Of a stretch of 64,000 nucleotides of DNA, positions 3 to 26,856 are shown piece after piece; within the stretch, counting starts at the first letter, position 1, and each line of letters opens with the position of its first letter. The translations under genes and the position numbers were made by a program. The notes beneath the pieces are model-generated. The model made no database searches. It worked only from the letters and a program-made list of their open reading frames with translations, and was not told the DNA's origin. Source of the DNA: a virus (Duplodnaviria > Caudoviricetes); the IMG/VR virus record IMGVR_UViG_2818991472_000001, positions 1-64,000 of that record; one strand, given 5' to 3'.

Positions 3-890
3 TGCAAGGCCGGAGGCCGCACCCACACCCTCTCCCTACGGCACTGCGCCGAACTGGCCGGGCTCTCACTGTCCACCACCGTCAAGGCCACCGCCCGAGT
101 CGAAGAGCGGCACCTGATGCGCCGCCTGGACTCCGGCACCGCCGACCACGGCGCCACGTGGCTACTTCTCGCACCGTCTCGTACCCGGCACAGTCCCAAG
201 GGCGGCGCCGCCGGTCCGGAACTTGAGTGTGTCGAGGCTGAGAACCCCGACGAGCGAATGGGCCTGGGGGCCCTTCGCGTCTTCGCCGCAGTCATGTCCC
301 TCGACGCCTTCTCCTTCCGTGGACTGGGTGCCTCCAGCGCCAAGCTGGTAGCCGCGCTCAGCGAGATGGAGCGCCCGACCCTTCCCGAGCTGGCAGCAGC
401 CGCTTCCGTCAGCAGGCCGACCGCGTACCGGCACCTGCCGCGCCTGGTCGACCTTGGCCTGGTGGTTCGGGAGGGCGAGGTCTACCAGCTCTCCCAGGAC
501 TCCTCAGAGGCCATTTCCCGCGCCCTGGCGGCCGAGGAGAACTGGGAGCAGGACTGGGTCGAGGTAGCCGTCGCGCTGGGCTCTGACGGGGTCTCCGAGC
601 GCCGCCGGGTGCTGCACCTGAACCACCGTCGCCGGTGGGCAGAGAAGCTGCAGCGGGTAGTTGAGCGTCGTGGTGCGGACGTCGTTCCTGTACGCGGCGA
701 CGAGATGCCGCAGTGGTGCGAAGCGGTCGGGGGCCGGGTCTATGACATCGGGACCGGGGAGGAGATCTCCCGGTTCATCAGGGCCGATGACGGGCACCTC
801 ATGCTCGAACCAGATCCGAAGGACGAGGACTACGAACGCCTTCGAATGCTTGCCCGAGAAGCGCAAGAAGAGTGGGAATCAGCAGCCTAA
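3..890 (+). CDS. 5'-truncated double winged-HTH protein, RepA-like plasmid replication initiator candidate
   Basis: Frame is open from base 3 (CKAGGRTHTLSLRHCAELAGLSLSTTVKATARV...), giving one HTH upstream of the called ATG117 and a second HTH (PTLPELAAAASVSRPTAYRHLPRLVDLGLV); tandem wHTH layout recalls RepA-like initiators of actinobacterial plasmids/phage-plasmids. Confidence 0.55.
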   Translation, partial: CKAGGRTHTLSLRHCAELAGLSLSTTVKATARVEERHLMRRLDSGTADHGATWLLLAPSRTRHSPKGGAAGPELECVEAENPDERMGLGALRVFAAVMSLDAFSFRGLGASSAKLVAALSEMERPTLPELAAAASVSRPTAYRHLPRLVDLGLVVREGEVYQLSQDSSEAISRALAAEENWEQDWVEVAVALGSDGVSERRRVLHLNHRRRWAEKLQRVVERRGADVVPVRGDEMPQWCEAVGGRVYDIGTGEEISRFIRADDGHLMLEPDPKDEDYERLRMLAREAQEEWESAA

Positions 891-1155
891 ACACTGTAAG
901 CCGCACGACGTACCTGCCACCTGCCACAACGATCTTGCCCTGACTCCGGTCAGCAGCCCCAAGCCCGGCTCCCGGGCCTTTCGAACCTGCCCTGAACGCA
1001 CTTCGTGGGTAGCCGTCTTGTCCGGCAACTCCCAGAAGTCGTAGCCCTGTTGAAGGAATCTGATCTTGGTTTGGTATTGATCTCAGGTTCGGCACATTCG
1101 ATCTCCGGACCAGCTACCGCGCCCCTGGGCATGTGCCGAGGGTGAGAGGGCTCTG

Positions 1156-2643
1156 TCACCGGAGCCAGACCTTGGCAATGGCTGGGGAGAAGATCTCCGG
1201 GTTGCCCTGCAAGGTGAACGTCAGCTGGGTGGTTCCGGCTGGCAGGGACCTTCGGCCGAAGACCCAGACTCGGGACCAGGCGTTCGCCGTGGCCACGGGG
1301 TTGGTGAAGGACAGGGGGAACGGTGTGGTGCCGTTGAGGGTTAGTGCCAGCTGCCCTTCCACGGTGGAGGAGCCGTGGACGTACATCACGAGGGCGAAGT
1401 CCTTCAGGGCTGACGGTCGGGTGTAGGTGAAGGACGACGGTGTGTCGGTGTACTGGCGCTTGAGGTGGTTGGGTCTGTTGTCGAAGGTGGGGGTGGCGCC
1501 GGACTCGATGACCAGGTTCGAGCTGACGTTGGTCACCTTGGACAGGTCGGTGAAGTCGTCAGTGAAGGTGGAGTTGTCGACCGAGTAGATCAGGCCGAGG
1601 CCGTCTAGGGCCTGCACGAGGCTCGCGACCGCGCCGGTGGCGCCTTCGGTGAAGATGACGGCACGGAAGGCTCCCGGAGCGCCCCAGACGCTGAGGTTGG
1701 CCCCTGCACCGCCGAGCATGACGTCGCTCGGAGCGTTGAGGTACCAGGGCACCACGGTGTTGTTGAGCAGGTGCAGGAACGGTCCTGGCCAGTCGCCGGT
1801 GTCGGGGACCGGCGCGCTGCCGAGCAGCAGGTTGCTCTGGAGGTCGCTGCGGAGACCCGGTCCGAGACTCAGGCCCGAGGTGGCGGTGACCCCGGAACCG
1901 ATGACGATCGCCTCTGGAGCGGTCGCTGAGAGCTGACGGCCGATCAGGACTTGTGAGGCTGCCCCGGAGAGGCTGGACGCCCCCAGGACGGTGCTGGAGG
2001 GACCAGCCTGGGCCCCGGCGCCCACCGCCAAGCCCAGGGCCTGTGCTGCGGCGGCTGAACCGATCGCGGTGCCCCCCTCGCCGTGGGCTGCGGTTGCGTG
2101 GCCGACGGCGACAGAGCCGATCCCCTGGTCGGTGACTCCGGCACCGGCCCCATTCCCGATCCACACCTGCCGGGGGGCATAGTCCGTCGGGTCGAGGCTG
2201 CCGAGCACCACCGAGTCCGGGGCGTCACCGCTGTGCTGGTGGGAGGCAAAGGCGTTGGCGGCCTGCCAGGTGGCCGTGCCCGCGTTCCCGCTCGCGAGGA
2301 TCGAGGAGCCGGTGACGCCCCCAGGCGCGGTGACCTTGATCGGAACCTCGGTCTGGGCCAGGCCGTCCGGGGGTGCAGGGATGTCTACGTTCGGCAGCGT
2401 CAGCGTGGAGTTCTGCGCGAAGGTCACCAGCACGGTCACCCGCATCGGCAGGTCCGTCCACAGGTTCACCACCGCAGGGGCGCAGAGGACGGGGAGGTCG
2501 AGAGGACTCCCCCCGACAGGGTCGGAGTAGACCGGGACCGAGACCGGCTGCCCGGTGAGGGTGTCGAGGAGGGAGACCTGGGCGTAGGGGTACAGCTGGC
2601 CGGTGGAGTCGACCAGCGGCAGGTAGAGATGGCAGCGCTCCAC
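1156..2643 (-). CDS. tail fibre/minor tail protein with YadA-like head repeats and C-terminal beta-sandwich
   Basis: GTG2643 preceded by AGGAGG; SVAVG/GTAIG/GLAVG repeats; N-terminus paralogous to 4033..5652 and 5769..8273. Confidence 0.7.
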   Translation of the reverse strand: MERCHLYLPLVDSTGQLYPYAQVSLLDTLTGQPVSVPVYSDPVGGSPLDLPVLCAPAVVNLWTDLPMRVTVLVTFAQNSTLTLPNVDIPAPPDGLAQTEVPIKVTAPGGVTGSSILASGNAGTATWQAANAFASHQHSGDAPDSVVLGSLDPTDYAPRQVWIGNGAGAGVTDQGIGSVAVGHATAAHGEGGTAIGSAAAAQALGLAVGAGAQAGPSSTVLGASSLSGAASQVLIGRQLSATAPEAIVIGSGVTATSGLSLGPGLRSDLQSNLLLGSAPVPDTGDWPGPFLHLLNNTVVPWYLNAPSDVMLGGAGANLSVWGAPGAFRAVIFTEGATGAVASLVQALDGLGLIYSVDNSTFTDDFTDLSKVTNVSSNLVIESGATPTFDNRPNHLKRQYTDTPSSFTYTRPSALKDFALVMYVHGSSTVEGQLALTLNGTTPFPLSFTNPVATANAWSRVWVFGRRSLPAGTTQLTFTLQGNPEIFSPAIAKVWLR

Positions 2644-2658
2644 GGAGCCCTCCTTCAT

Positions 2659-4020
2659 TCAGGTCGTCGGCAGGACCGGCAGGTCGTAGTCGGGCTGGAA
2701 GTAGAAGTACCGGAACTGGGAGGTCGCTCCGGCCGGAGACAGAAGACCGACCCCCTTGGCCTGGGGGAAGTACGGGCCGATGGGCACGCCGGTTGTTAGG
2801 TTGGCGACGTCACCGAGGGATGCTCCGCTGCTCAGGTTGCAGGCCAGCGTGCTGCCGTTGAAGCGCAGCACGACGTCGGTCTCGGCGGTGATCGACGTGC
2901 TACCCGGCAATGTGGCGATGGTGGTGGCGGTGCCCCCGACCACAGCTTGGATCTGGCCGCTCTGGGTGAGCATGAGGTAGTTGGAGGCGTCCTGACGGCG
3001 GAACACCAGCCCACCGGCGGCGGCGACGGCCCCGAACCGCGTCACCAGCCAGCCGCTCCCCCGGTTCGGGGTGACGAACATCGAACTGCCCGAGGCCAGC
3101 AGCACCCCGTCCTTGCTGGCCGTGGCGGTCCCGGTCACCGTCCACCTCCCGTCGGAGGAGTCGAGTGAGGTGGGCGTGTAGGTGCTGGTGCTCGGTTGCT
3201 CGATCGTCCTGCTGGCCTGGTGCCAGAGGAACAGGTCGGCGTAGGACGGCTGGAGGGCCGTCCAAGCGGTGAGCAGGGTGTCCGTGCCCCGGGTGTCGAC
3301 ACCCATGTACGACCCACCGAAGAAGAACATCTGCCGGGGGAAGGACGTGGTCGGAGGGTAGAACAGCCTCGGCTCGTTGAAGATCAACGGCACCTTGTAG
3401 TCGACGAGGCAGACCACCGAGCTGTAGAACTGCGAGACCAGGATGTCGTGCCGCTTGCCGTCCCAGAGGTTCACCTTGCCGCTGAGAGGAATTGCGGCCT
3501 CATCGGATGGCAGGACATCCCAGGGCGCAACCGAGGCGTCGTACCCGAAGTACATCCGGGCCTCCTGGTTGCGCCTGGTGAAGGCGAGGTAGTACCGGTC
3601 CGCGCCCGGGGTGTAGCTGGAGCTTCCGGTGTGCTTCACGCAGAAGGCGAAGTCCTGCACCCCCCAGACGTCCCCGGCGCTTTTGCCGTTGCCCCAGGCG
3701 GGATCGAGCACCACGCCGGTGGTCTGGGGAATCAGCTGGATCAGCACGGAGCCGTCGCTGCTGCCGACGTCTCGCAGCGCGGCCATGCCGTCCGGAGAGC
3801 CCTTCTTGGCACCCCAGCCGGGGAGGACGGCGGAAGCCGAAGGCGAGCCGAAGGACCACTGGGGGCTGCTGAGGCTGGGCCCGAGAGCAGGAGCATAGGT
3901 GTACGGCTTCGGGCTGAAGTCCGGGTTCCCGAGGGTGCCGTCGACGGTGACGCGGCCAAAGGCGTCCAGGACGCCGGTGGCGTACTGATACAGGACGCCC
4001 GGCGCGATGACCATTGACAA
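2659..4020 (-). CDS. minor tail protein, beta-rich (possible lectin-like receptor-binding protein)
   Basis: Gly/Ser/Thr/aromatic-rich 453 aa ORF in the fibre cluster, AGGAGG RBS. Confidence 0.55.
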   Translation of the reverse strand: MSMVIAPGVLYQYATGVLDAFGRVTVDGTLGNPDFSPKPYTYAPALGPSLSSPQWSFGSPSASAVLPGWGAKKGSPDGMAALRDVGSSDGSVLIQLIPQTTGVVLDPAWGNGKSAGDVWGVQDFAFCVKHTGSSSYTPGADRYYLAFTRRNQEARMYFGYDASVAPWDVLPSDEAAIPLSGKVNLWDGKRHDILVSQFYSSVVCLVDYKVPLIFNEPRLFYPPTTSFPRQMFFFGGSYMGVDTRGTDTLLTAWTALQPSYADLFLWHQASRTIEQPSTSTYTPTSLDSSDGRWTVTGTATASKDGVLLASGSSMFVTPNRGSGWLVTRFGAVAAAGGLVFRRQDASNYLMLTQSGQIQAVVGGTATTIATLPGSTSITAETDVVLRFNGSTLACNLSSGASLGDVANLTTGVPIGPYFPQAKGVGLLSPAGATSQFRYFYFQPDYDLPVLPTT

Positions 4021-4032
4021 GATCTGGCCTCC

Positions 4033-5652
4033 TTAGGTGCCTTGGGTGGTGCCGTTGTTGATCAGTCCGGTCGCGGCGAGGGCAGTCAGGACGTTGCGCA
4101 GGGCGAGGTTGTTGCCGTCAGCCCCGGTGACGGTTGGGCGAGTGGTCCCCTCTGTTCCGAAGAAGCCGAGCCTGGACGCATCGGACGAACCGAGATTGAC
4201 GGCGCCGACAGCCGAGAGGCGTCCGGCCACGACCACCTGCCGGTAGACGGACGACGAGCCGAGCATGATCTGCAGCGCTGCGGTCGTCATCGCCGACTCG
4301 CCCAGGGCCGTCGACCCGGTATGGGCGGCCTGCACCTGCGCATTTCGCCCGATGGCGACGCCGTTCGGCGCGAGGCCCTGGGCGCCAGAGCCCAGGGCCA
4401 AAGCCCCGTTCGCTCCGGTGCCGACATACGCGGCCGAGCCGATGGCGGCTGAGTCGGCGCCGTATGCTTTCGCGCCCTTGCCGACGGCCACGCCGTTGGT
4501 CGCGTCAACGTAGGCGCCGCTGCCCACCGCGAGCCAGCGGACCGCGTTGGTGTTGCCGGTGGCTCCGGCACCGATCGCCGTGCTGCTGTCCGAGAACGCT
4601 GCGGCCGAGATGCCGACCGCCGTCGACCCTGGTCCCCACGCCTGGGCCCAGTACCCCACCGCCACGCTGTTGGACCCGGCCGCGTTGGCATTCACCCCAA
4701 CACCAACCGCGCCACTGGACTTCGCCTCGGCCCCGGTCCCGAGGGCGACGGAGTTCGGGCCAGCACCCGGGTGGGTGTGTGCGGGAACCTGGCCTCCGTA
4801 GACGATCCGTACACCCGTCAGCCATGCCTGGTGCCCGGTGTCCGGGACGAACGTCGCCGCGCCCTGGAACTCGAAGGTGGCCGCCAGGTAGCTGCCTGGC
4901 GCGAGTGGGTACCGGTAGTACCCCCAGTCGCGTACCCCTGTGATGGTCTCCAGGATGGTCCGTGTGCCGTCCGGCTTCGTCACCGAGATGCTGACGGACT
5001 CCCCGGCGGACTGGCCGACCTTCAGCCAGCAGCCGACGTATCCGGTTTCCAGGAGGTTGAAGCCCGGGGTGACCACCATCAGGTCACCGGCGTCGCCGGT
5101 GTGGGCGACCTTCAGGGATCGGCTGAGGCCCTGCTGGTCGGGGACATCGGTGCTGTAGGACCGCGAGGTTGTCGTGCGCTGCATCAGAGACCAGCTTGGT
5201 GGGTCCTGACCGGCAGAGAAGCTCTCGGCCAAGACGGTCACCAGGACGGACAGGCCGCTGCTGCTCGGGGGGTCGCCCCACAGCGCCTGGCCCGGGGTCG
5301 CCCCGGCGAGCAGCATCTTCCCGGGGAGCGCCTGGCCCACGATCCTCAGCGAGGAGTCGGTCCACACGACCGTCTCCGGCGCAGCTGTGGCATCGAGGTA
5401 CACCAGGATGTCGCTGTGCCCGGCGGCCTGGACCAGGATGCTGACCCGCTGGGGGGCCTCCACCCAGAAGTCGATGATCCCTCGGTCGGCGATGAATGGG
5501 TTCGGCAGCGTGTCGGTGCCGCTCAGCGAGGTGAACATCGGCTGGTTCAGCGGCACCGACAGCCCGGACTCGCGCACCGTCACCTGCGCGCCGTACAGCA
5601 GCGTCCCGTCAGTGCCCGTGATGGGCTGGTAGACGTGTGCCCTGGCGGTCAT
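4033..5652 (-). CDS. tail fibre with YadA-like head repeats
   Basis: ~11 tandem SVALG/AVGVG/STAVG/STAIG repeats; C-terminal LGFFG..RP.VTG..GN.AL..VLTALA..GLI segment common in actinophage minor tail proteins. Confidence 0.75.
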   Translation of the reverse strand: MTARAHVYQPITGTDGTLLYGAQVTVRESGLSVPLNQPMFTSLSGTDTLPNPFIADRGIIDFWVEAPQRVSILVQAAGHSDILVYLDATAAPETVVWTDSSLRIVGQALPGKMLLAGATPGQALWGDPPSSSGLSVLVTVLAESFSAGQDPPSWSLMQRTTTSRSYSTDVPDQQGLSRSLKVAHTGDAGDLMVVTPGFNLLETGYVGCWLKVGQSAGESVSISVTKPDGTRTILETITGVRDWGYYRYPLAPGSYLAATFEFQGAATFVPDTGHQAWLTGVRIVYGGQVPAHTHPGAGPNSVALGTGAEAKSSGAVGVGVNANAAGSNSVAVGYWAQAWGPGSTAVGISAAAFSDSSTAIGAGATGNTNAVRWLAVGSGAYVDATNGVAVGKGAKAYGADSAAIGSAAYVGTGANGALALGSGAQGLAPNGVAIGRNAQVQAAHTGSTALGESAMTTAALQIMLGSSSVYRQVVVAGRLSAVGAVNLGSSDASRLGFFGTEGTTRPTVTGADGNNLALRNVLTALAATGLINNGTTQGT

Positions 5653-5678
5653 GGCCCTCCCCTCGGAGTCTGCAGTTC

Positions 5679-5768: not shown

Positions 5769-8273
5769 TCAGCCGAGTGCAGCCCAGTACGGGGAGGAGG
5801 ACAGAACGATCGAGCTGATGGCGAGGTTGGACGGCAGCGTCTGCAGGCCGGAGCCGACCGTCCCCCATCGTGCGGTAGCCGCCGTCAGGTTGATGTTCGC
5901 TCCGGCCGCTGAGACGCTCGATCCGCGAGTGAAGGTGGGCAGCGTGGTCCCGTTGGCCAGCAGCGCTACCCAGTAGGACCCGGCCGGAAGAACCACCGGC
6001 CCTCCCACCAGCGCCATGAACTTCGGTCCGCCCGACTGCCACGAGGTCGCCTGGTCGGCGGTCGAACCGACCAGGTTGCCTGTGGCGTCGTACAGCCCCA
6101 CCCAGCACTGACCGGTCGTCAGGCCGCTGCCGCCGGTGACGACCTGCGCGACGATGTTGGTGACGGTCCGGGGAGCCCGAAGAACGATCTTGATCAGCTG
6201 GACGACACCCGCCCCGAAGGCCGAGTTGGCCGTGACCGACCCGGGGTCCTGCGACCAGGCGATCAGACCGTGGTCCGACGGGAGGACGACGTCGGGATTC
6301 AGGACATCGGACACCAGACCACCAGCGCTGGTGAACGCCAGGGACGATGTTGTGACTCTCAGGCCCGGTACGGTGCGTACGGCCTCGGTGCCGGACCGCC
6401 CCTTCTGGTCGGTGACGTTGGGGCCGCGCAGGAGCAGCTCGTTGCCTCCGCCGTCGTGCCAGGGGGTGTCGGTGGCGGCGAGCAGGCCGGACGAGACCGA
6501 CACGTAGCGGCTGTGGTCGGCGTGCACCCCGTACTGGGGCGAGATCCCTCCGCTGGTGCTGCTGTCGTCGGCGCCGACGGTGACGGTGAGGCCGTCAGCG
6601 ACCACCGGGCAGGTCGTGCTGATCACAGCCAGACCGGCCCAGCCGCCCCCACCGCCCGCGCCGTTGTTACGGCCGTCGCGGTACAGGCGGCAACCGCTGA
6701 GGTTGACCACGGAGCCGTCTCCGGCCACGATCCGGATGCCGTGCTGGTTGCTGCGATCGGTCGTGCAGCCGACCAGCCCCACGGGACCGAGCCCTGGGGC
6801 GATCAGGAACCCGTCCTTCCCGGACCAGCCCGACCGGCAGGCCGAGAGGGTGGCACCGCCCGGGTTCGACAGGGACCAGCCGTTCCCGGTCGCGCCGAGC
6901 GACTCGCAGTCCACGAACGTGCTGTTCAGCGGACTGGCCAGGTTGAAGCCGTCCAGAGCGGCCTTGTAGACCACCACTCGCTGCGCCCGAAGTCCGATCG
7001 GAGTGTTGGCACCGAACGCATCCACGACACTGCGAAGACCGTGCCCGCTCACACGCTGGATGTTCAGGCCACGTACCTGGACGCCCTGGACGTTGCCCGC
7101 CAGCTGCACGCCGTCCACGGCGGGCGAGGCGGCCAGGTCCCGGCCGTCGATCGTCAGATCGCAGATCTGCTGCTCCCGGGACAGCTCGGAGTACGAGCCC
7201 ATCACCTGGTCCACGATCCTCACCACCGCGTTGCCCGAGAAGATCGGCAGCGGGCGCAGCGCAGTCGCCGGTACGACGTCGGCGGCCTGCTGCTCGATGT
7301 TGGCGTGCGACCCGAGCAGGGTGACCGACGGCGGGATGTAGAGCGGGGCGGAGGTGCGGTAGACGGCCGGGAGGAGGTAGACCGTGCCCCCCTTGGGGCA
7401 GACGTTGAGCGCGGCCTGCAGGGCCGCCGTGTCGTCGGAGACCCCGTCAGCCTTTGCGCCGAAGTCGCGCGGACTGACCCACCGCAGCACGGTGACCGTT
7501 CCCGCACCCCCGGCCGAGCCGCCTGCTGTGCCGCTGTCGCTGGTGGGCGCGGCCTGGGTGGCGAGCAGACCGCCGTCGCTGACCTGCAGGAGCCAGCGCT
7601 TGCCTCCGGCGCTGCGGACGACGAACGAACCCGCGACCTCGACCATGTCGGTCGGGGTGCCGAGCATGACCTGGCCAGGTGCGGTGGTGGCCGCCCCGGC
7701 GCCGACGGCCGTGGACGAGGCGTGCCGGGCGGTGGCCGCGAAGCCGAGCGCCGTTGACGAGGGCGCGCTGGCTCCGGCGCTCGCGCCCACGGCGGTTGCC
7801 CCGGCTGCGCTAGCCGAGGTGTTCGCTCCGTAGGCGCTGGACACGTCGGCCAGGGCCTGCGCCGCCCGCCCGGCTGCCGCCGAGTCCTTGCCCGTAGCAG
7901 CAGCTGATACACCGGTGGCGGTGGCCCCGACACCGGCGGCGGCAGCGCCGCTGCCCACCTGCATGGAGTTCGCCCCGGAACCGGCGTGGACGGAGTCGAG
8001 GCCCGGTGCGGTGACGTCCAGATCCTCCCAGAACTCCTCCGGGTTGCCCGGGGAGGTGATGCCGATCTTCACCCGGCTGGGCGCGTCCAGGTAGAAGGAG
8101 ACGTCGCCACCGTTGGTGAAGAACGGGTTGGTCTTCACCGCTCCGGTGCTGCCGTCGGTGTAGATGGTCTCGGAGATCTGGACGTTGGTGCCCGCCTCCA
8201 AGATGCGCACCTGTGCCTGCGGGACACGGTTGCCCGCGCTGTCGAGGTACGGGCGGGAGAAGTGCGCCCTCAC
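5769..8273 (-). CDS. tailspike/fibre: YadA-like repeats, pectate-lyase-like beta-helix, C-terminal beta domain
   Basis: VSPRDFGAKADGVSDDTAALQAAL..GGTVYL motif (Pectate_lyase_3 start) followed by beta-helix repeats; shared fibre N-terminus. Confidence 0.8.
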   Translation of the reverse strand: MRAHFSRPYLDSAGNRVPQAQVRILEAGTNVQISETIYTDGSTGAVKTNPFFTNGGDVSFYLDAPSRVKIGITSPGNPEEFWEDLDVTAPGLDSVHAGSGANSMQVGSGAAAAGVGATATGVSAAATGKDSAAAGRAAQALADVSSAYGANTSASAAGATAVGASAGASAPSSTALGFAATARHASSTAVGAGAATTAPGQVMLGTPTDMVEVAGSFVVRSAGGKRWLLQVSDGGLLATQAAPTSDSGTAGGSAGGAGTVTVLRWVSPRDFGAKADGVSDDTAALQAALNVCPKGGTVYLLPAVYRTSAPLYIPPSVTLLGSHANIEQQAADVVPATALRPLPIFSGNAVVRIVDQVMGSYSELSREQQICDLTIDGRDLAASPAVDGVQLAGNVQGVQVRGLNIQRVSGHGLRSVVDAFGANTPIGLRAQRVVVYKAALDGFNLASPLNSTFVDCESLGATGNGWSLSNPGGATLSACRSGWSGKDGFLIAPGLGPVGLVGCTTDRSNQHGIRIVAGDGSVVNLSGCRLYRDGRNNGAGGGGGWAGLAVISTTCPVVADGLTVTVGADDSSTSGGISPQYGVHADHSRYVSVSSGLLAATDTPWHDGGGNELLLRGPNVTDQKGRSGTEAVRTVPGLRVTTSSLAFTSAGGLVSDVLNPDVVLPSDHGLIAWSQDPGSVTANSAFGAGVVQLIKIVLRAPRTVTNIVAQVVTGGSGLTTGQCWVGLYDATGNLVGSTADQATSWQSGGPKFMALVGGPVVLPAGSYWVALLANGTTLPTFTRGSSVSAAGANINLTAATARWGTVGSGLQTLPSNLAISSIVLSSSPYWAALG

Positions 8274-8312: not shown

Positions 8313-11300
8313 TCATGAGATGGGCTGGACCAGGGCCTCGGCCAGAGAGAACGCGTCCACGCTCGGCGGCGCGGTCTCGCTGGTCCCCTCGACGACCGTG
8401 TGTGGGAGCACGGCCGCATCGGGCGGGGTGACGGTCGGCCAGATGCGGTCCCGCCACAGCCGGGAGGCTGCCCACCACCACTGGGGGATGGGCTCGTGCC
8501 ACGCCTGGAAGTACGGGTCCTGGTGGACCGGCGGGTAGTAGTCGGCCAGGGCGCTCGCGGCCCCGGCGGCCTGCAGGGTGTCCTGGTAGGGGATGGCCCC
8601 GGCCAGGCTCGCGTACCACGGCCGGATGACCACAGCGGAGACCGAGGTGCTCGGCGCGTAGCTGGTCACCCGCCACCGCAGCTGCGTGCCGCCGGTGAGG
8701 TCGTTGACCGGGAGGTCCGGGAAGACCAGGGCCCCGCGCGGGTCGTTGCGGATGTCCAGGACCGGGAACCAGTTCGCGCCGCCGTCCCTGCTGACCTCCC
8801 ACAGCAGCGGGTCGGCGAACAGGGCGAGGCTGTCCACCAGCCACTCCCCTGTGCCGCTCGCGCCGTCCTGGACGATCCGCGCCCGGACGTCGCGTACCCG
8901 CTCGACGTCGAAGTCCTGGGCCACGGTGTCCCAGGAGCCCAGAGCCTCCGCCTGGTCCCAGGTCGAGGCCATGCCCGTGATCACGTCCCAGGTCCTGATG
9001 CCGGTGGTCACCGTGTCGTGCATCGAGTAGTCGACGTACCACTCGGCCACCTGGCTGTCGGCCGGGGCGTCGGCCTCGGCCAGGATGCGCCCGTCGCCGT
9101 TGACCAGCTGCAGCGACACAGGTGTGGCGAGAGGCTTGGTGAAGACCACCCGAGCCGCCGCGAAGAGCCGACCGTGGGACGGCGGCTGCACCCCTCGTAC
9201 GGACTCGATGCCGCCGCTGGTGGACTCGACCTGGGACTGCTCCAGCTCGTTCCACTGCGGCCGGTTCGGGTCAGGGTTGGCATCCTCGATGGCGGCCCAC
9301 GACCGGAACCGGCTCTCCATCGCGTCCCATGACGACCCGGCGTGGCCCCGGGTGACCTGGACCGTCCGGCTCAAGCTGCTCTCGTAGACGTCCGAGGTGG
9401 TCAGCGTCGCGTCACCGACCGGGCGCCAGTGCCGAAGGGTCGGGTCGGAGAACTCCGGGTCGTCGAGCAGCTGGAGCGCGTCGCTCTGCGTCGTGGCGAT
9501 CTGGATGCCGAGCACCTTGCGTCGCGACACGTACGGGACCGACGTCACCCGGACTCCGGCCGTGCCTACGAGATCCGGTGTGACGAGGCCGCCTTCGGTG
9601 AAGACCCAGCTGTCCGGCTTCCCATCGGTGAATCCGTCCAGGTGAGAGGTGTCGTGGAGCAGCTCGACGTACTGCTCGGTGTCCTGCTGGGCGGCCGGGC
9701 TGGTTCGGAACGCCCGTACGCTCTTCACCGCCACGGTGTACGCCGTCTTGGCGTCCATCGTCAGCTCCACCACCCGGTACCTGTGGACCCCGGTGGCCAG
9801 CCACCGGGGAGCCTGGGTGCCGGGGAGCGGCATGAACCTCCACGGCTTCGCTGTACCGGAGCTGCGAAGGCGCTGGGCGTCCTGCGGGTCGACGGCGAAC
9901 AGGGCTTCGGTGGGCAGGTACGGCTGGCCGTCGTACGGCGACGTCGCGGTCCGCTGCGGCGAGTCCTGGAAGGCCACCCCGATACTCCTGGCCGGGCCCA
10001 GGCCCGGCGGGGAGGCCGTCGACGCCTGGTCCGACGCTCGTGCCGTCGTGGCGATGCCTCCGCCAGTGTCGCCCGGGAAGAGCTGCACCCGTACGACGGG
10101 CGACCCGGTCGGGTTGACCAGCATCGGCTGAAGGTTGGTGAATTCCAGCTTGAGGAAGCTGGCCTTCACCGGCCTGAAGGTGAACGCCTGCTTCTGCAGC
10201 TGGAAGTCGCCGTTGATCGGCGTCCACACCGTCGTGCTGTAGTCCACACCAGGGCCGCCGATGAGACCGAGCGGGCACACCGAGTCGTCCCCCGGCGTCA
10301 CCAGCGACCCATCGAAGCGCAGCAGGGCGTTCGCGCACGTGTGCGTCGATGCGTCGACCGCTCCGCCGGGTGTCATGCCGTAGCCGGTCGGATCGCCCCA
10401 GTAGGCGTCGATGGCGCCGATGTCCTGGGCGCGGCCCTGCGCCAGGAACAGCGACGTGATCCGAAGCATCCCCCCAGGGCCACCCGAAACCGGGCCGCCC
10501 AGCATCACTACCGGCCCCGAGGACGTCGGCCCCGATGATCCGATCGGCTGGATGCGGGTGCTCCAGGGAGTGCGCACCGTCAGGTTCTCGCCGTCGAAGG
10601 CGACGGCCCACGGCACGCGCGCGTTGAAGCCGAAGTCGATCGGATCGAGGGAGACCGTCAGCTGGCCGAGCGTGGCCGACACCGCCCCGCTGCTGACGCA
10701 GACGGCCAGGCCACCGGTGTCCAAGATCGTGTGCAGGGTGCCGGAGACGGACGTGAACTGCGGCTGAACGATCCCGGCGACCAGGAACGGCTTCGTGGTG
10801 TCGAACTGCAGCGCCGCTCCGTCGATGCGTACCGCATCGGCGGAGCCCGGCAGGTACAGCCCCTCCTTGCTCGCCTGAACTCCGTCATTAACTGCTCTGA
10901 CCTGCGGAAATCCGAGCGGTTCACTGATCGGCGCGAACCTGAAGACTCCCCAGTCCTTCACTGAATCAACCGGGGCGTAGTACAGGTTCACGGTCGGCCC
11001 GGAGGTCAGCGGATCGCACTCGATCCGGTCGATGACCTGCGGCTTGCCGTCAGCCGAGCGGACGTCGAGGTACAGGTTGACCACCGCGTTCGGCACCGGC
11101 TGCGGAGCACAGCGCCACACCCCTCCGTCACCAAGAACAGAGGCTGCACGGCTACGTCGCACCACGTAGTCGATCGCGGAACCCAGTAGGTCCTGGCCCT
11201 GGGCAATCGGAGTGGTGTGACTGGCATCGGTCATCGGCAGCCACGGCATGTCGCTCGGGGAGGCGAGCCGGTAGCTGAGTGAGACGTCCTTGACCCCGAG

Positions 11301-19548: not shown

Positions 19549-19560
19549 TGCCTTCACTGA

Positions 19561-19584
19561 AAAGTGTTCCGCGCGGAACACTTT
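19561..19584. repeat. parS-like palindrome 1
   Basis: perfect 24-bp palindrome AAAGTGTTCCGCGCGGAACACTTT. Confidence 0.75.
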
Positions 19585-19606
19585 CGACAGGGGAGGGGGC
19601 CAGGGC

Positions 19607-19632
19607 AAAAGTGTTCCGCGCGGAACACTTTT
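19607..19632. repeat. parS-like palindrome 2
   Basis: perfect 26-bp palindrome AAAAGTGTTCCGCGCGGAACACTTTT, 47 bp from copy 1. Confidence 0.75.
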
Positions 19633-21224: not shown

Positions 21225-21225
21225 C

Positions 21226-23451
21226 TCAGCCTCCGGTCGCGGGCATCGACGGGAAGGTGGTGTTCGGGTTGGTCGGCGGGGTCGCGGACGCCGCAGCTCC
21301 GTTGGTGCCGCTGGTGTCGAGCAGCATGAGCAGCCGCTTCGCCTCCTGGGTCAGGCCGATCGTGACCCCGCCGCCCGGTGCGGCGTTCTGCTTCTTCCAG
21401 TCGTCCAGGGACTGGCCGCTGTCGTCGGTGGCGTTGGCTTCCGCCTTGAAATCACGCAAGGGGTCGATCTTGTCGCCGCCGAGGATGTCCTTGACGGTCT
21501 GCCCCCGGCCGTTGCTGTCGAGGATGACGGCGTCGCCCTGGGCCAGCTCGTTCCGGTGGTTGGTGACGGCGTCCTCCAGGGAGACGACTCGCTTCTTCCC
21601 CCCGGCGGTGGTCACCACGACCTGGGTCTTCCCGTCGTCCTTGACCTTGCCCAGCAGGGCCTCGACCACGGGGTCCATGTTGCCACCCGTGATCTTGTCC
21701 ATAGCCCACTTGCGGTACGCCTCGTCGGCGGCCGTGTTCCCCAGGTTGATCGGGAGTACCGCCGTGCTCTGACCAATGGCCGGGTTGTAGTTGTCGTTGC
21801 CGCCTCGGTTGATGCCCTCGACCACCTTGTTCTTCTTGCTGGTCTCGGCCTGGTGCTTCTTGTCGGCGTCGCTCAACTCCTGCTTGGCTGCGCCTGCCAG
21901 CCCGCCCTGGGACTTGGCCGCGATCTGCCGCACGACCCAGCGGGCGGCATCCAGCGGCTGCTCGGCGCCCTTGGGAAGGACGAGCGTCAGCGCGGCCACC
22001 AGGTCGTAGGCCACCGGGTACCAGGTCGTCAGCAGACGGCTGGCGATGTCGTCTACCTCGGCGTCGGACAGTGCCTTCTTGCCGCTGACCTTGAGCTTGT
22101 TGGTGATCTCCTTCTCGACCCACTCCTGCACGCCGGGCTTCAACGCGTTCCCCGTGACCAGGCTGTCCAGCTTGCCCTGCGCACTCGCCTGGACGTCTGC
22201 GGACGCGAGGTACTGGGAGGGCGTCACTCCGGCGACGGAGGACGCGAGGAGGGTATAGCTGGAGCCGAGCCGGTTGGAGAAGTCCGTGTCCTGGAACGAG
22301 CGGCCGAGAGAGGTCTTCAGCTGCTGCTGCAGCCTGGCGGCATCGACCGCCGTGTTGCCGCCCATGCCGTTGGAGGCCGCCGTGCCCACCAGGTTGGTGA
22401 ACTCCGCGCGTGCCATCTGCGCGTTGATGCCCGCCTTCCCCGCAGAGTCGCTGACGTCCTTCAGGGCGTCGGAGAGCTGCTTGAAGTTCGTGACGGCGGC
22501 CTTGCTGACAACCTGAAGCGTCTGGAGTGATTCACCGACGCTCGCGCCGTAGGCCGTCTTGCCGTGGTAGATCATGTTGAGCGCGTCCTGGCGCCCGGGG
22601 CCGCCCTCCACCTTCGAGTTGTAGCCGAGCTTGGTCACCCCCTTGAACGCCTGGCGGGCCTCGTCGCTGGAGAACACACCGAGCGTGCTCCACCGGTACG
22701 CCTCCTCGTGGAGCCGCTCCCCGAAGCCCGCGAAGTTCGAGCCGCCCTCCACGCTCTGGTAGAACGCATTCTTGTCCCGCTGAGACCTGATCTCAGCCGG
22801 GATCTGGCTCCCTACGGCGATTGCGGCACCCGCCACAGCCCCCCACGGGCCGAACCGGGCGGCGAGCAGCGAAGGCGCGTTCTGCTGCACCCACTGCCCG
22901 ATCCCGGAACCGCCGGACCAGCTACCGCCCACCCCGCCACCGCCACCGCCGCCACCGCCGCCACCGCTTGATGGCGAAGGTGGCGGCGTGTAGGGGTACG
23001 GGCCCTGCTGCCCCTGCGCTCCCGGCATCATCCACGGCATGCCGCCGACGACTGTCATGGGATGGCCGCCCACGCCCGGCCACGGCGTGGACGCGGGCCC
23101 GGCTGGGGCCGCAGGGGTTTGAGGAGCAGCCGACGCTCCAGCCTGGCCGCGCTGGGGCTGGTTAAGCAGCACCTGGGATGTGAAGCGCTGCGCCTGGGCC
23201 TGGAACCACCCAACCGTAGGCAGGAGAGGGGCCTGCGGGATGCGACCACCCATCAGGGCCTGGACCAGCGCCATCGCTCCGCCCGCAGGGCTCGCTGGCG
23301 GCCCGCCCGGGGTAGGCCCGTACGTGCCCTGCATGTGCACCAGGGCCTGGAGCGTCTGCTGCATCTGCCGGGTGGCAGCCATCTGAGCCTGGGTGCTGGC
23401 GAGCAGTGCCGCGAGCGCAGGCGGCGTGTTCGGAGGCGGTGGAGTCGCCAT
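21226..23451 (-). CDS. tape measure protein
   Basis: Follows frameshifted chaperone; Ala/Gln-rich helical body with Pro/Gly-rich N-terminus; ATG23451 coupled to upstream stop. Confidence 0.65.
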   Translation of the reverse strand: MATPPPPNTPPALAALLASTQAQMAATRQMQQTLQALVHMQGTYGPTPGGPPASPAGGAMALVQALMGGRIPQAPLLPTVGWFQAQAQRFTSQVLLNQPQRGQAGASAAPQTPAAPAGPASTPWPGVGGHPMTVVGGMPWMMPGAQGQQGPYPYTPPPSPSSGGGGGGGGGGGVGGSWSGGSGIGQWVQQNAPSLLAARFGPWGAVAGAAIAVGSQIPAEIRSQRDKNAFYQSVEGGSNFAGFGERLHEEAYRWSTLGVFSSDEARQAFKGVTKLGYNSKVEGGPGRQDALNMIYHGKTAYGASVGESLQTLQVVSKAAVTNFKQLSDALKDVSDSAGKAGINAQMARAEFTNLVGTAASNGMGGNTAVDAARLQQQLKTSLGRSFQDTDFSNRLGSSYTLLASSVAGVTPSQYLASADVQASAQGKLDSLVTGNALKPGVQEWVEKEITNKLKVSGKKALSDAEVDDIASRLLTTWYPVAYDLVAALTLVLPKGAEQPLDAARWVVRQIAAKSQGGLAGAAKQELSDADKKHQAETSKKNKVVEGINRGGNDNYNPAIGQSTAVLPINLGNTAADEAYRKWAMDKITGGNMDPVVEALLGKVKDDGKTQVVVTTAGGKKRVVSLEDAVTNHRNELAQGDAVILDSNGRGQTVKDILGGDKIDPLRDFKAEANATDDSGQSLDDWKKQNAAPGGGVTIGLTQEAKRLLMLLDTSGTNGAAASATPPTNPNTTFPSMPATGG

Positions 23452-23882
23452 CAGGTCCACTCCCTGTCGGTCGGGTCATCGGCGAGCACAGGGGCATCAG
23501 CAGGGTCGTAGGTGTCCCTCACGGTCACTCGCCGGTTGTTCGACATGGCGGCCTGCATCCGGTCCCAGTCGGAGATGCTGGCGCTCTCGTCCCAGTCCAC
23601 TCCGCTGTAGTCGAAGTCCACGTCGTCGTCGTTCTCCGGCCGCCACTCCCGGACCTCGTCCGCGAAGACGCGCTCCGGGTCGACGCCTGCGGCCACGAGG
23701 GCGCGCTTCAGCGCCTCACGGTCCGCGCGGGCGGCCTTGAGGCCGTCGGCGAAGTTGAGCAGGTCGGCCGCCAGGGCCTGGACGGCGGAGGGCCGACGGA
23801 CGTTCAGCAGACCCCGGCGCTCGGCTACTCGGAGGCGCCGTTCGAGCCAGGGGTCGAGTCCGTCGGCCCGAAGGCTTTTCCC
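23451..23882 (-). CDS. tail assembly chaperone, -1 frameshift extension (gpGT-like)
   Basis: Open -1 frame entered at GGGAAAA; no independent RBS/start. Confidence 0.75.
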   Translation of the reverse strand, partial: GKSLRADGLDPWLERRLRVAERRGLLNVRRPSAVQALAADLLNFADGLKAARADREALKRALVAAGVDPERVFADEVREWRPENDDDVDFDYSGVDWDESASISDWDRMQAAMSNNRRVTVRDTYDPADAPVLADDPTDREWT

Positions 23883-24370
23883 ATGGCCTCGACCACCTGA
23901 GCCACCGTGTGCTCCAGCTCCAGGAACTCCTGGAACACCTGGGCGATGGTGAATCCGAACCAGTTCTTCTTCACGTAGTTGAAGCGGGCATGGGCCCACT
24001 CCGCGAGCTGGGAGTCCTCTCCGATGGGTGTGGGAAGCTCCTCGCCGTCCACGGACACGGTCGCCAGCGCCGCGATGGCGGTGGTGTAGGCGAGCTGCTC
24101 GCCCGCAGTCCCGACGTACGGCTTGACCAGGAGAGCGATGGCGAGCTGTTCGTCAGGGCCGAGGGTGCGGAGCACGAAGGAGTGCCCCAGCCACGTGAAA
24201 GTCTTCGTGAGCGCACCGAGGTACAGGAGTCCCTCGAAGGGCTCGGTGTGCCGCTGGTCGAACGTCGGCAGCACGTTGCCGTCGCTGTCCACCAGCGCCC
24301 CAGCCGGAGGAACGCGGTCGGGGGCCCCTGGCCGGACGCTCGCCGGGTCGTACGTGCCGTACTCGCCCAT
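23825..24370 (-). CDS. tail assembly chaperone (gpG-like)
   Basis: ATG24370 overlaps tube stop; between tube and tape measure; ends ...AMGKA at slippery site. Confidence 0.8.
   Translation of the reverse strand: MGEYGTYDPASVRPGAPDRVPPAGALVDSDGNVLPTFDQRHTEPFEGLLYLGALTKTFTWLGHSFVLRTLGPDEQLAIALLVKPYVGTAGEQLAYTTAIAALATVSVDGEELPTPIGEDSQLAEWAHARFNYVKKNWFGFTIAQVFQEFLELEHTVAQVVEAMGKAFGPTDSTPGSNGASE
23876..23882 (-). other. programmed -1 ribosomal frameshift site G GGA AAA
   Basis: XXXYYYZ heptamer in correct phase; frames of the two ORFs differ by -1. Confidence 0.85.
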
Positions 24371-24876
24371 CACGCCCCCAGCCGGGTCGAGTGGGTGTAG
24401 GCAGCAACGATGGGCTTGGCGACGTCCAGGCCGCCGACGGTGATGGTGTCGCCGTCGGCGATGTCCACGATCGTGCAGTTGTGGTACGTCTTCCCGCGCC
24501 AGCGCGACGGGTTGTTCTCGGTGCCTGGCGGCTTGATGATGGTCTGCGCGGTTACAGCATTCGGCGTCGAGGCGAGCCTGTCGAAGATCTCGACGATGTT
24601 GTTCGTCCCGCTCATGTCGGCCAGCTGCTCCCAGATCGCCTCGTTCCACAGCTCCTGGATCGTCATCTGCAGCGTGCCCAGGGACAGCACCCGGGAAGTC
24701 GCGATCTCCACCGGGGTGCGACTGCCGAGCGGGTGGATCGCCGCGTACGCCTGCCCCTTGTCGCTCCAGGCCCGCTGGCCAGAATCTTCCACGCTGAGCA
24801 GGAACGCGATCGGCCTCCCGGCCCACGAGAAGACGCTGTACCCCGATCCGGTGACCCTCGCCTGTGTTGTCGGCAT
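24370..24876 (-). CDS. tail tube protein
   Basis: ATG24876 with AGGGGAG RBS; IHPLG...P.EI, GTL...ELW, YHNC.I tube motifs. Confidence 0.75.
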   Translation of the reverse strand: MPTTQARVTGSGYSVFSWAGRPIAFLLSVEDSGQRAWSDKGQAYAAIHPLGSRTPVEIATSRVLSLGTLQMTIQELWNEAIWEQLADMSGTNNIVEIFDRLASTPNAVTAQTIIKPPGTENNPSRWRGKTYHNCTIVDIADGDTITVGGLDVAKPIVAAYTHSTRLGA

Positions 24877-24903
24877 CGCCGCTCCCCTGTTCAGAACCCC
24901 TGT

Positions 24904-24938
24904 CACCTCTTGAGGGGCCGCAGAACAGGGCGAGACAG
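24904..24938 (-). promoter_or_regulatory. bipartite late motif (variant)
   Basis: CACCTCTT-N22-GACAG upstream of tube gene. Confidence 0.65.
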
Positions 24939-25098: not shown

Positions 25099-25932
25099 AT
25101 GACGATCACCCTCCCCGAACCGGCCGCACCACCCGACGAGGAAAGCACCGAAACCCGTGTGATCACGGTCGGTGTTCTCAAGGGGGGAACCGGGAAGTCC
25201 CGCCTGGCCATGCTCATCGCCCTCATCCTGGCCGTCGTCTTCCGGCGCCGTGTGGTCGTCTTCGATGCCGACTCGGCCAGCCAGACGTCGATGAAGTGGA
25301 TGGACAAGGCGAAGCTCCGTGGCTACGCATGGCCCTTCGAGGTCATCCGGCACCCCTTCGAGACCCTGGACCAGGAGATCGACAAGATCCGGGCCAGGGG
25401 CGATGTGGATGACATCATCGTGGACGTCGGCGGCGGCAACCTCGCCTCGTTCCTGGCAGCGGTCAGGCGCTCGAACATCCTCCTGGTCCCCCTGTGTCCC
25501 GACGAGGGGGACATCGAGCAGGCCCCGCAGACCCGGGAAGCGGCTCTCATGGGCGCCGCACGCAACACCGTCGGCGGCGTGGTCATGTTCTACCTTCTCA
25601 ACCGGTGCAGCATGACCAGCAACGACCGAGTCAGCGCCCGCAACGTTCTCCTCGACGAGCGCCAGGCTGACGGCCCGTTCCCGCTGTGCGACATCGAGTT
25701 GCCGCAGCTGGTTGCCTACCAGCGTTCCTTCGGACGCATCCCGGGGCAGAAGGTGCCCGACGATGCTGAGGACCACATCCGCTGGAAGGACCTGAGCAAC
25801 TTCGCCCCCCTCCTGATCGAGACTGGTGTGCTCACTGCTCAACAAGCCGTCGATGCCAGTCTGATCACCCACCGCGAGCTGAAGGACGCCAACATCTTGA
25901 CCCCCGAAGAGCTTGAGGCGGTGACGGTCTGA
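25099..25932 (+). CDS. parA: ParA family partition ATPase
   Basis: Deviant Walker A KGGTGKS, VVVFDAD, IIVDVGG; ATG25099 with GAGGA RBS. Confidence 0.9.
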   Translation: MTITLPEPAAPPDEESTETRVITVGVLKGGTGKSRLAMLIALILAVVFRRRVVVFDADSASQTSMKWMDKAKLRGYAWPFEVIRHPFETLDQEIDKIRARGDVDDIIVDVGGGNLASFLAAVRRSNILLVPLCPDEGDIEQAPQTREAALMGAARNTVGGVVMFYLLNRCSMTSNDRVSARNVLLDERQADGPFPLCDIELPQLVAYQRSFGRIPGQKVPDDAEDHIRWKDLSNFAPLLIETGVLTAQQAVDASLITHRELKDANILTPEELEAVTV

Positions 25933-26762
25933 TGGCCAAGGGACAGATGCTGCCCCCTAGCACGGGCGCGCCTCTCGAAGTGACGCCCGAGTTCGTAGAG
26001 CAGGAGGCCCGATCGGGCGCGGCCTCCGGCTCCAAGGCCAACGCGAAGCAGCCTGCCAAGGTGGTCAAGGCCAGCACCCCGGAGGAGGCCACCACTCCTC
26101 TGCCTGCTGTTGATGCCCCCCCGGCAGAGATCTGCGAGGTGGTCGACAAGGTCATCGCAGAGGCCAACGCCGAACTCGCGGTCAACCAGGCCACGGCCGC
26201 CATCATCTGGGTCAACAAGGTCGGCCCCGTGGTGCGGCTCGCCAAGGAGTCCGGCTCGTGGAAAGAGGCCGTCGACCCGGCTACCGACAAGGTCTACAGG
26301 AGCTGGATCAAGTGGGGTGACGACCGGGGCATCTCCAAGACCCATCTCTACCGGCTGGTCAAGGAGGTGCCCGTCTCCAAGGCCCTGGAAGGGGTCTACA
26401 CCGGCCAGCTGACCACCCGCCAGGTCGACTTCCTCTACACCGTCATGCGCAAGCACGGCGGGGAAGCCATGGCGGGGATGTGGCAGAAGGCGGTCGAGTT
26501 CGGCGGCCCGACCCTGGCCAACCTGGAGAAGGCCAAGCAGGCCCTCAACCTCTCGACCACCGCGTCCGACGACGAGGATGCCGACGAGCTAGAGGCGAAG
26601 AACGGCCGAATGCTGCAGTTGAAGGCAGTCCGGGTGGACTTCGACCCAGACCGCCTTCGCGCCGATGCGGCCCGCGATCCGAAGGCCGCCCGCGAGTACG
26701 CCGACCTTCTTGGGACCGTCCGCAACATCGTTCTCGAAGCCATCGGCCAGGACGCGCAGTAA
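25932..26762 (+). CDS. ParA partner, HTH centromere-binding protein (ParB-like, no recognisable CTPase motif)
   Basis: Translationally coupled to parA (TGATG); YRSWIKWGDDRGISKTHLYRLV HTH like Streptomyces plasmid partition adaptors. Confidence 0.7.
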   Translation: MAKGQMLPPSTGAPLEVTPEFVEQEARSGAASGSKANAKQPAKVVKASTPEEATTPLPAVDAPPAEICEVVDKVIAEANAELAVNQATAAIIWVNKVGPVVRLAKESGSWKEAVDPATDKVYRSWIKWGDDRGISKTHLYRLVKEVPVSKALEGVYTGQLTTRQVDFLYTVMRKHGGEAMAGMWQKAVEFGGPTLANLEKAKQALNLSTTASDDEDADELEAKNGRMLQLKAVRVDFDPDRLRADAARDPKAAREYADLLGTVRNIVLEAIGQDAQ

Positions 26763-26763
26763 G

Positions 26764-26785
26764 AACCGTTCCGCGCGGAACGGTT
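26764..26785. repeat. parS-like palindrome 3
   Basis: perfect 22-bp palindrome AACCGTTCCGCGCGGAACGGTT immediately after adaptor stop. Confidence 0.75.
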
Positions 26786-26788
26786 TCC

Positions 26789-26825
26789 GGCCCGGCCCCC
26801 GCCAGTTCGGCAGGGCGGCCGGGCC
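26789..26825. terminator. hairpin between convergent par and sheath genes
   Basis: ggcccggcc...ggccgggcc imperfect stem. Confidence 0.55.
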
Positions 26826-26842
26826 GATCCATGTCCAAAAGT

Positions 26843-26856
26843 GTTCCGCGCGGAAC
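26843..26856. repeat. parS-like palindrome 4
   Basis: GTTCCGCGCGGAAC core with left flank of copies 1/2 and right flank of copy 3. Confidence 0.75.

Follow-up and report, generated by a model that had tools for sequence, protein, structure and literature searches.

A likely phage-plasmid of Streptomyces with contractile-tail genes, a ParA-type ATPase and a junction-spanning winged-helix protein

Genes and features at the locus

The subject of this analysis is a stretch of DNA of 64,000 nucleotides (positions 1 to 64,000 of IMG/VR record IMGVR_UViG_2818991472_000001; hereafter the window), which is C8:1-64000 and represents the virion half of C8, one contig of a 10.09-Mb, nine-contig Streptomyces-type genome. 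An initial annotation of the left part of the window, made from the letters alone, had proposed a contractile-tailed phage-plasmid of the Bxz1-like lineage, citing a RepA-like gene at the left edge, a parA gene with a coupled helix-turn-helix (HTH) adaptor, repeated palindromes and a near-complete set of myovirus structural genes, with no integrase in view. C8 is considered here, with a probability of roughly 0.78, to be a contractile-tailed phage genome maintained in Streptomyces as a low-copy circular plasmid and not as an integrated prophage. The features of the window that bear most directly on plasmid maintenance are as follows (coordinates without a prefix are those of the window).

3-890, plus strand: final 295 of the 447 codons for a double winged-helix protein, with a start near C8 154806, the gene spanning the contig junction
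24991-25932, plus strand: ParA-type partition ATPase, likely start ATG at 25096, with the deviant Walker A motif KGGTGKS
25932-26762, plus strand: all-helical partner protein of 276 amino acids (aa), a candidate centromere binder with an HTH-like stretch; its ATG overlaps the ParA stop codon by one base
26764-26863: candidate centromere directly after the partner stop codon, comprising GTTCCGCGCGGAAC at 26768 and 26843 flanking a G+C-rich hairpin
19560-19632: second GTTCCGCGCGGAAC pair, at 19566 and 19613, 47 bp apart, flanked by AAAAGT...ACTTTT and located between genes of the tail operon

C8 as a separate replicon

The contig is 155,259 bp in length and has a G+C content of 69.6%, compared with 71.6-73.9% in the remaining contigs of the genome. 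No direct or inverted overlap was found between its termini. The open reading frame (ORF) at the left edge is the in-frame continuation of sequence at the opposite end of the contig, with 524 codons open across the junction, 229 of which lie on the far side and have a G+C content at third codon positions (GC3) of 0.87. The two segments, C8 154623-155258 and window 3-890, are neighbouring parts of one gene in five relatives (pRLB1-9.1, the cg35 plasmid, A0642, MH60 and NPDC021080), and unitigs from three public sequencing runs, which stem from two studies of the same organism, reach past window position 1. The organism carried the element in both studies, one year apart. A search of the other contigs of the genome revealed no second copy of C8, just eight short, weak matches, and no chromosome-sized contig was found to bear any member of the family, chromosomal integration being among the observations that had been named as contrary to the phage-plasmid proposal. 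tRNA genes were not found on C8. As proposed in the initial annotation, then, C8 appears to be a replicon in its own right that is not integrated and whose ends are circular or circularly permuted, a conclusion supported by its standing as a contig of its own, by the joining of its ends and by the deposition of relatives as circular plasmids. Contigs C7 (72,434 bp) and C9 (310,729 bp) of the same genome, which have no sequence in common with C8, may be further plasmids.

The absence of an integrase holds for the window, in which no integrase family match was found, and no such match was obtained on C8 as a whole at E <= 0.01. The wider contig does, however, encode a probable tyrosine recombinase at C8 109584-110678, outside the window. 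Its match to PF00589 (24.1 bits) falls short of the cut-off, and it shares 45% identity with a recombinase annotated in pRLB1-9.1, the sole other replicon in which this type was found. The relatives have one or two tyrosine recombinases each, located in a variable region and not orthologous across the six replicons. Since no integrated copy was encountered anywhere, dimer resolution seems the likelier role for these proteins.

Relatives of C8

Gene calls on C8 were GC3-based and are approximate; of the 162 genes called, 67-72 were matched, in syntenic order, in pRLB1-9.1 and the cg35 plasmid. The former, from Streptomyces sp. RLB1-9 (NZ_CP041653.1; 154,158 bp, circular), was the sole relative in PLSDB by DNA and by capsid protein. 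Species-representative genomes added the complete plasmid of Streptomyces sp. cg35 (NZ_CP191269.1; 151,251 bp) and whole relative contigs from A0642 (152,548 bp), MH60 (156,949 bp) and NPDC021080 (155,672 bp). More broadly, about 20 Streptomyces assemblies encode homologues of the left-edge protein on 150-158-kb contigs, none of these contigs being of chromosome size, and 344 IMG/VR contigs carry the capsid gene, several of them 154-166 kb in length. Two larger contigs are approximately twice the unit length, namely JBEZLN010000005.1 (303,881 bp), which has a phage-plasmid context, and a 309,833-bp JGI contig with the same winged-helix gene; these may be dimers, assembly concatemers or cointegrates.

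The deposited records of pRLB1-9.1 and the cg35 plasmid are annotated simply as plasmids. A viral flag for pRLB1-9.1 exists just in a supplementary table of Sharma et al. (2023), where it is listed as 100% viral, a 'remnant' and a singleton. No paper describing this 155-kb family was found in the literature on Streptomyces phage-plasmids and extrachromosomal prophages.

ParA, its partner and the palindromes

The parA gene of the initial annotation was confirmed, its product matching phrog_164 (7e-17) and NF041546 (1e-16), in both cases below the curated cut-offs. The nearest relative is encoded by the conjugative Streptomyces plasmid pZL1 (59% identity), and no match for the C8 protein was found in the phage collection. 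The coupled HTH adaptor likewise proved to be a genuine translationally coupled gene, the product of which had no match in Pfam, NCBIfam or PHROG; nor was a ParB_N domain found on C8. The structural model of the partner (predicted local distance difference test score, pLDDT, 82) consists of helices throughout and shows no N-terminal beta strand, and fold searches returned nothing above noise (best Z 6.3; KorB, Z 4.8; SopB, E 1.8). An exhaustive search delivered 36 representatives of the partner family, compared with the two yielded by a word-based search.

ParA with an overlapping partner gene was present in all six replicons examined. The one-base overlap is also seen for partner homologues on metagenomic contigs that have the exact layout of C8, in which the partner is 40% identical, and on a 272-kb NCBI contig. 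When cg35 and NPDC021080 are compared with pRLB1-9.1, in all of which the cassette occupies the same site between NlpC/P60 and baseplate genes, identity is 40% for ParA and 27% for the partner, and 76-84% for the flanking tail genes. The cassette of C8 is located differently, being inserted in the opposite orientation between the sheath gene and the tube gene; these two genes adjoin one another in relatives that lack a cassette (G406 and G409).

The claim of repeated palindromes was also upheld. Four copies of the 14-bp palindrome GTTCCGCGCGGAAC are present in the window (19566, 19613, 26768 and 26843) against an expectation of 0.07, a fifth copy is located at C8 135188, and the frequency in the largest chromosome contig, C1, is 0.8 per Mb. 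Palindromes follow the partner stop codon in all five relatives, as a pair in four and as one copy, at the contig end, in A0642. Their cores differ between replicons:

pRLB1-9.1, MH60 and A0642: GTGACATGCATGTCAC
cg35: GTGGCCCA-C-TGGGCCAC
NPDC021080: GAGACCCATGGGTCTC
C8-like metagenomic contigs and the 272-kb contig: GTGTCCCA..TGGGACAC palindrome variants

The four palindrome types track the four ParA/partner lineages. Set against type I ParABS systems, C8 has a ParA with a deviant Walker A motif and repeated centromere-like sites beside the operon, the sequence of which varies with the lineage of the partner; a ParB_N or ribbon-helix-helix binder was not found. These data support the presence on C8 of a putative ParA-based partition module with cognate palindromes, in which the partner would be a candidate centromere binder of non-ParB type.

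The junction-spanning winged-helix protein

The family profile of the left-edge protein matches C8 154812-155252 and 3-869, and Pfam places an IclR/MarR HTH at residues 115-157 of the part encoded in the window. The AlphaFold model of the cg35 orthologue (pLDDT 82) has a helical N-domain, two winged-helix domains (WH1 and WH2), a helical stretch, a small beta unit and a C-terminal helix, in keeping with the double winged-helix architecture that had been annotated. The description of the protein as RepA-like fared less well. It matches generic HTH families and no Rep family, with no match to a phage RepA, and the matches listed by Foldseek and VIA-align for the model were generic MarR/IclR structures, with no RepE, RepA or pi structure among them. 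Since both sequence and fold searches give the MarR/IclR type only, the term is without positive support beyond the two winged-helix domains. No recognised Rep family was found elsewhere on C8.

The distribution of the protein does nevertheless point to plasmid biology, as far as can be judged from homology. Nearly full-length homologues are encoded on 20 other large Streptomyces and Kitasatospora plasmids, near ParA genes in two of three such plasmids that were examined, and the phage collection contained no match. Chromosomal homologues were observed at G156:C1 3041614-3042903 and G168:C1 7199788-7201071, in low-GC islands, each homologue being followed by a gene for a small CbiA/ParA-like ATPase. 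Genes for transposases are located nearby in G168, and in G156 there is one for an RHS-repeat protein. The islands may be remnants of integrated plasmids.

In every phage-plasmid the winged-helix gene is divergent from the helicase/replication operon across 0.6-1.1 kb containing conserved non-coding blocks. Upstream of the C8 gene (C8 153667-154800) there are several blocks conserved in relatives, one of them around ATGATGTTGAATGGCCT, another a GCTGGCATG..CCAGC hairpin preceded by GGAGG, and a third a hairpin with GAGGGGCGC. In C8 alone the region also contains two 25-nt direct repeats spaced 36 bp apart. No Rfam family was found in this region. The TCACCTGCCAC repeats were considered as iterons and are probably not, since they contain the CTGCCA leader motif. 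With a ratio of nonsynonymous to synonymous substitution rates (dN/dS) of 0.5-0.67, the winged-helix gene is the fastest-evolving conserved gene tested. The protein may be an initiator, a copy controller or a repressor.

Phage genes

The virion and packaging genes identified are listed below; all but the last lie in the window, on the minus strand.

1156-2658, 2659-4020 and 4033-5652, minus: three tail-fibre-like genes, the last with a YadA-head repeat; orthologues in the same order in relatives
5769-8273, minus: pectate-lyase-fold tailspike or minor tail protein (PF12708, 5.5e-10; phrog_11699, 1.3e-53)
8313-12539, minus: minor tail protein of 1408 aa, its N-terminal domain being a poly-gamma-glutamate hydrolase (PF05908, 9.5e-46; phrog_2840, phrog_4175)
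12551-13870, minus: virion structural protein, DUF7297 (PF23970, 7.6e-30; phrog_2813; pRLB1-9.1 annotation), the start being set from the 444-aa gene of relatives
13867-15768, minus: baseplate J (PF04865, 2.3e-28)
15851-16279, minus: small baseplate protein (phrog_2669, 5.5e-18)
16977-19499, minus: 840-aa NlpC/P60 tail protein, a hub or tail-lysin candidate (PF00877; orthologues 60% identical)
21226-23460, minus: 744-aa tape-measure candidate, by position only, with no family match; orthologues in relatives
24370-24906, minus: virion structural protein, tail-tube candidate (phrog_2756, 3.7e-29; 75-84% identical in relatives)
26863-28422, minus: tail sheath (phrog_2839, 2e-60)
36124-37122, minus: HK97-fold major capsid protein (phrog_2522, 9e-103; 80-83% identical in relatives)
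38836-41301, minus: prohead protease fusion (PHROG matches including phrog_18299, head maturation protease)
53595-55826, minus: portal (phrog_2833, 5e-146)
C8 128343-130442, outside the window: large terminase

The annotated myovirus structural set is therefore real, although the region to which it was assigned, 3-26856, contains just the tail-fibre, baseplate, tape-measure-candidate and tube-candidate genes; the sheath gene begins at 26863, the capsid and portal genes are located further to the right, and the terminase gene is outside the window. On C8 as a whole the virion and packaging set is complete (sheath, tube candidate, baseplate, fibres, capsid, portal, protease and terminase), and the contig has replisome genes of its own, encoding Pol III alpha, DnaB and helicases. 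All of the major virion genes are full length and 60-96% conserved, and they are under purifying selection between relatives (dN/dS 0.18-0.39).

The proposed affiliation with the Bxz1-type lineage was corroborated by the portal protein, which is 38-41% identical to its counterparts in 209 Mycobacterium phage genomes, each about 155 kb in length, and to those of Rhodococcus phage Finch and Gordonia phage Pupper. Because portal identity is just around 40%, C8 is regarded as a distant relative of cluster C mycobacteriophages and not as a member of the cluster. No Streptomyces phage in the phage collection matched the C8 portal, and a megablast search of the same collection with 25 kb gave no match.

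Several other features of the window were observed. A 258-aa protein encoded at 29085-29861 (minus), among tail and head-tail genes, has a C-terminal domain resembling rifampin ADP-ribosyltransferase (Arr), with scores below the cut-offs (PF12120, 5e-08; NF033144, 9e-08); it is 55% identical in cg35 and was not found in pRLB1-9.1. At 42825-44663 (plus), within the head-gene region, there are two genes on the opposite strand, the second of which corresponds to a 'MAB_1171c family putative transporter' of pRLB1-9.1; each of the six plasmid-clade replicons has the pair, which both of the sister-clade genomes examined lack. No Rfam families were found in the window.

Plasmid clade and sister clade

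The distribution of the maintenance genes across the family was examined with family-specific profiles, a whole-genome scan with Pfam CbiA having proved too noisy for ParA. Among ten IMG/VR relatives, the ParA and winged-helix profiles both matched the same two genomes, and eight IMG/VR genomes rated 100% complete had neither ParA nor the winged-helix protein, positive controls being included. In a tree of the capsid protein, a single branch (support 100/99) splits eight replicons with both genes from eight with neither. C8 is the deepest branch of the plasmid clade, its capsid protein being 80-83% identical to those of its relatives. Because one branch of the tree separates the clades, the fact that ParA and the winged-helix protein occur together has to be counted as one evolutionary event.

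The sister clade consists of IMG/VR genomes G405-G411 and G413, which are complete genomes of 124-166 kb with capsid proteins 76-80% identical; the two that were fetched in full have a G+C content of 65.6-66.9% and 2-7 tRNA genes. These two have 42 genes in common with C8. A further 13 genes are present in C8 and in all five other members of its clade, and in neither sister genome fetched; these include ParA, both halves of the winged-helix gene, a group of WhiJ-like HTH-DUF5753 regulators, a DUF2637 protein and a transporter-like pair.

The WhiJ-like set, at C8 93984-96993, comprises an HTH_31-DUF5753 regulator and, going by the annotation of pRLB1-9.1, an ATP-binding protein. It was found in 6/6 replicons and 0/2 sister genomes, and a small ORF that follows it in C8 sits where pRLB1-9.1 has a DUF397 gene. 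The WhiJ-like regulator is a candidate lysogeny regulator. The DUF2637 protein (C8 121628-123151, minus) is specific to the plasmid clade; in pZL1, a DUF2637 gene directly follows the ParA and partner pair.

Alternative readings

A number of observations weigh against C8 being a plasmid prophage with the maintenance functions suggested above. A closed contig is also what assembly of a circularly permuted lytic phage genome would be expected to give, and every replicon has a tyrosine recombinase. The association between ParA and the winged-helix protein stems from one branch of the tree and so is not a repeated co-occurrence. ParA scores below the curated family cut-offs and its partner has no solved homologue; the AAAAGT...ACTTTT flanks could make the palindromes bidirectional terminators; the winged-helix family occurs in chromosomal islands too; and no iterons are conserved across the relatives, which have other conserved blocks instead. 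There are several rival readings of the element as a whole. C8 might be a domesticated or defective phage derivative, kept as a plasmid only and no longer making infectious virions, in line with the listing of pRLB1-9.1 as a 'remnant', with the lack of any isolated Streptomyces phage of this lineage in the phage collection and with the fact that a replicon in isolates is the sole known state. This seems improbable given that the major virion genes are intact, conserved and constrained, that terminase, portal and protease genes are all present, and that the capsid gene recurs on 344 IMG/VR contigs. It might also be a virulent or pseudolysogenic phage caught in a carrier state, the ParA cassette serving some other purpose, since the related cluster C mycobacteriophages are regarded as lytic, a circularly permuted genome assembles as a circle and the element has its own replisome. 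Such a state would scarcely be expected in some 20 independent isolates, or in the same organism in two studies a year apart; moreover, the phages on record lack ParA, the partner and the winged-helix protein, which are all of plasmid type, and the par cassettes diversify jointly with the palindromes in the manner of incompatibility determinants, all of which makes a carrier state quite improbable. Least credible of all is an integrating temperate phage observed in its excised circular form, for although at least one tyrosine recombinase per replicon would provide the means, no member lies on a chromosome-sized contig, the other contigs of this genome hold no C8 sequence, and the recombinases, which are not orthologous and are confined to the variable region, are of a size (about 280-370 aa) that suits Xer/Cre-like dimer resolution too.

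Two components of the preferred reading, a phage maintained as a plasmid, have rivals of their own. The palindromes could be nothing other than bidirectional transcription terminators, being intergenic, at gene ends and surrounded by A-tract and T-tract flanks. However, every type of core is palindromic through its centre, copies are identical within a replicon and different between par lineages, a distinct G+C-rich hairpin lies beside them, and a simple terminator scan did not flag them; because of the centre-palindromic, self-complementary cores, the identity of copies and the absence of a terminator call, protein-binding centromeres are preferred over plain terminators, which seem rather unlikely. 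A choice is harder to make for the winged-helix protein, which could be a prophage repressor or another regulator rather than a replication initiator. It matches MarR/IclR-type folds only, it is divergent from the early operon, as immunity repressors are, it evolves faster than any other conserved gene tested, iterons are not conserved, and one contig of another genome (G096) has three winged-helix paralogues. Conversely, the protein is absent from all phages on record, it is encoded in single copy on 20 other large plasmids, close to par genes in two of three that were examined, and its chromosomal relatives have a small ParA-like ATPase as a neighbour. A regulatory role has, accordingly, a sizeable chance of being correct, albeit somewhat short of even.

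A working model and comparison with known systems

With its virion and packaging genes, predicted maintenance genes of plasmid type and apparently separate replicon, C8 would qualify as a phage-plasmid in the sense of Pfeifer et al. (2021). We infer that the element is temperate, and that it would be capable of producing virions and of switching between the two states. Lytic growth would be served by the genes for the virion, for packaging and for the replisome (Pol III alpha, DnaB and helicases), all of which belong to the lineage shared with Bxz1-type (cluster C) phages. Plasmid inheritance would depend upon a three-part module composed of the ParA ATPase, a helical partner of non-ParB type that would bind DNA and is translationally coupled to ParA, and pairs of perfect palindromes. 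The partner would bind the palindromes as centromeres, two of them after the operon, two at a distance of 7 kb in the tail operon and one in the early region. In a weaker step of the model, the junction-spanning winged-helix protein and the conserved non-coding region of about 1 kb would probably handle replication or its control.

A broader and more tentative proposal, which we consider somewhat less likely than its converse, is that one clade of Bxz1-related 155-kb myoviruses became plasmid-prophages of Streptomyces by means of a plasmid-derived maintenance set. In that event the winged-helix protein may act as the initiator or copy controller of an uncharacterised replicon type that is common to large Streptomyces plasmids, and the partition module would be of a new kind (ParA, a non-ParB helical binder and palindromes framed by AAGTG...CACTT), with its specificity swapped like an incompatibility determinant. 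The sites dispersed in the tail operon may then also link the expression of late genes to the plasmid state, in the manner of N15.

Phages P1 (ParAB/parS, RepA, Cre-lox) and N15 (SopAB) are tailed phages that exist as low-copy extrachromosomal replicons, as is proposed for C8. Common to all three are a ParA-type ATPase, a partner that binds DNA and repeated sites resembling centromeres, the partner and sites being putative in C8. The palindromes of C8 are dispersed among late genes, a likeness to N15, and its tyrosine recombinase could resolve dimers as Cre does in P1. In contrast to both, C8 has a virion of unrelated lineage, a partner without the ParB CTPase domain and no detectable RepA homologue, and in its family the cassette sits in the tail operon and is exchanged between relatives.

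Among actinobacterial phages, extrachromosomal temperate types have been described as almost exclusive to cluster A, with pZL12 as the sole exception (Wetzel et al. 2020, PMC7157519). In cluster A mycobacteriophages such as RedRock and Miko (PMC7157519) and in Streptomyces pZL12, parABS replaces integration, and RepA is present in some and absent in many. These are siphoviruses of approximately 50-90 kb, whereas C8 is a 155-kb contractile-tailed element with its own Pol III alpha and DnaB.

With cluster C (Bxz1-type) phages, Finch and Pupper, C8 shares a genome size of mostly about 150-157 kb (139 kb for Finch) and capsid, sheath and baseplate proteins of the same PHROG families. It differs from cluster C in having no tRNA genes, of which those phages have a large set, and in its ParA, partner, winged-helix protein, WhiJ-like regulator set, plasmid lifestyle and Streptomyces host. 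The closest systems are pRLB1-9.1 and the cg35 plasmid, syntenic members of the same family at 151-154 kb, although the par cassette of C8 is of another lineage, occupies another site and is associated with another palindrome.

Significance

C8 and its relatives constitute a new family of large contractile-tailed phage-plasmids that is widespread in Streptomyces, yet has been filed in databases merely as 'plasmid'. A lineage regarded as lytic includes a large contractile-tailed family that lives as plasmids in many Streptomyces isolates. This widens a picture of extrachromosomal actinobacterial prophages that has been centred on cluster A (PMC7157519). The family also brings to light an unnamed group of ParA partners with at least four putative centromere specificities, which are amenable to direct tests, and in practical terms it could yield large-capacity vectors, and possibly transducing phages, for Streptomyces genetics. 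Finally, the sister clade, which has neither ParA nor the winged-helix protein, provides a natural comparison for asking what makes a lytic phage into a plasmid prophage.

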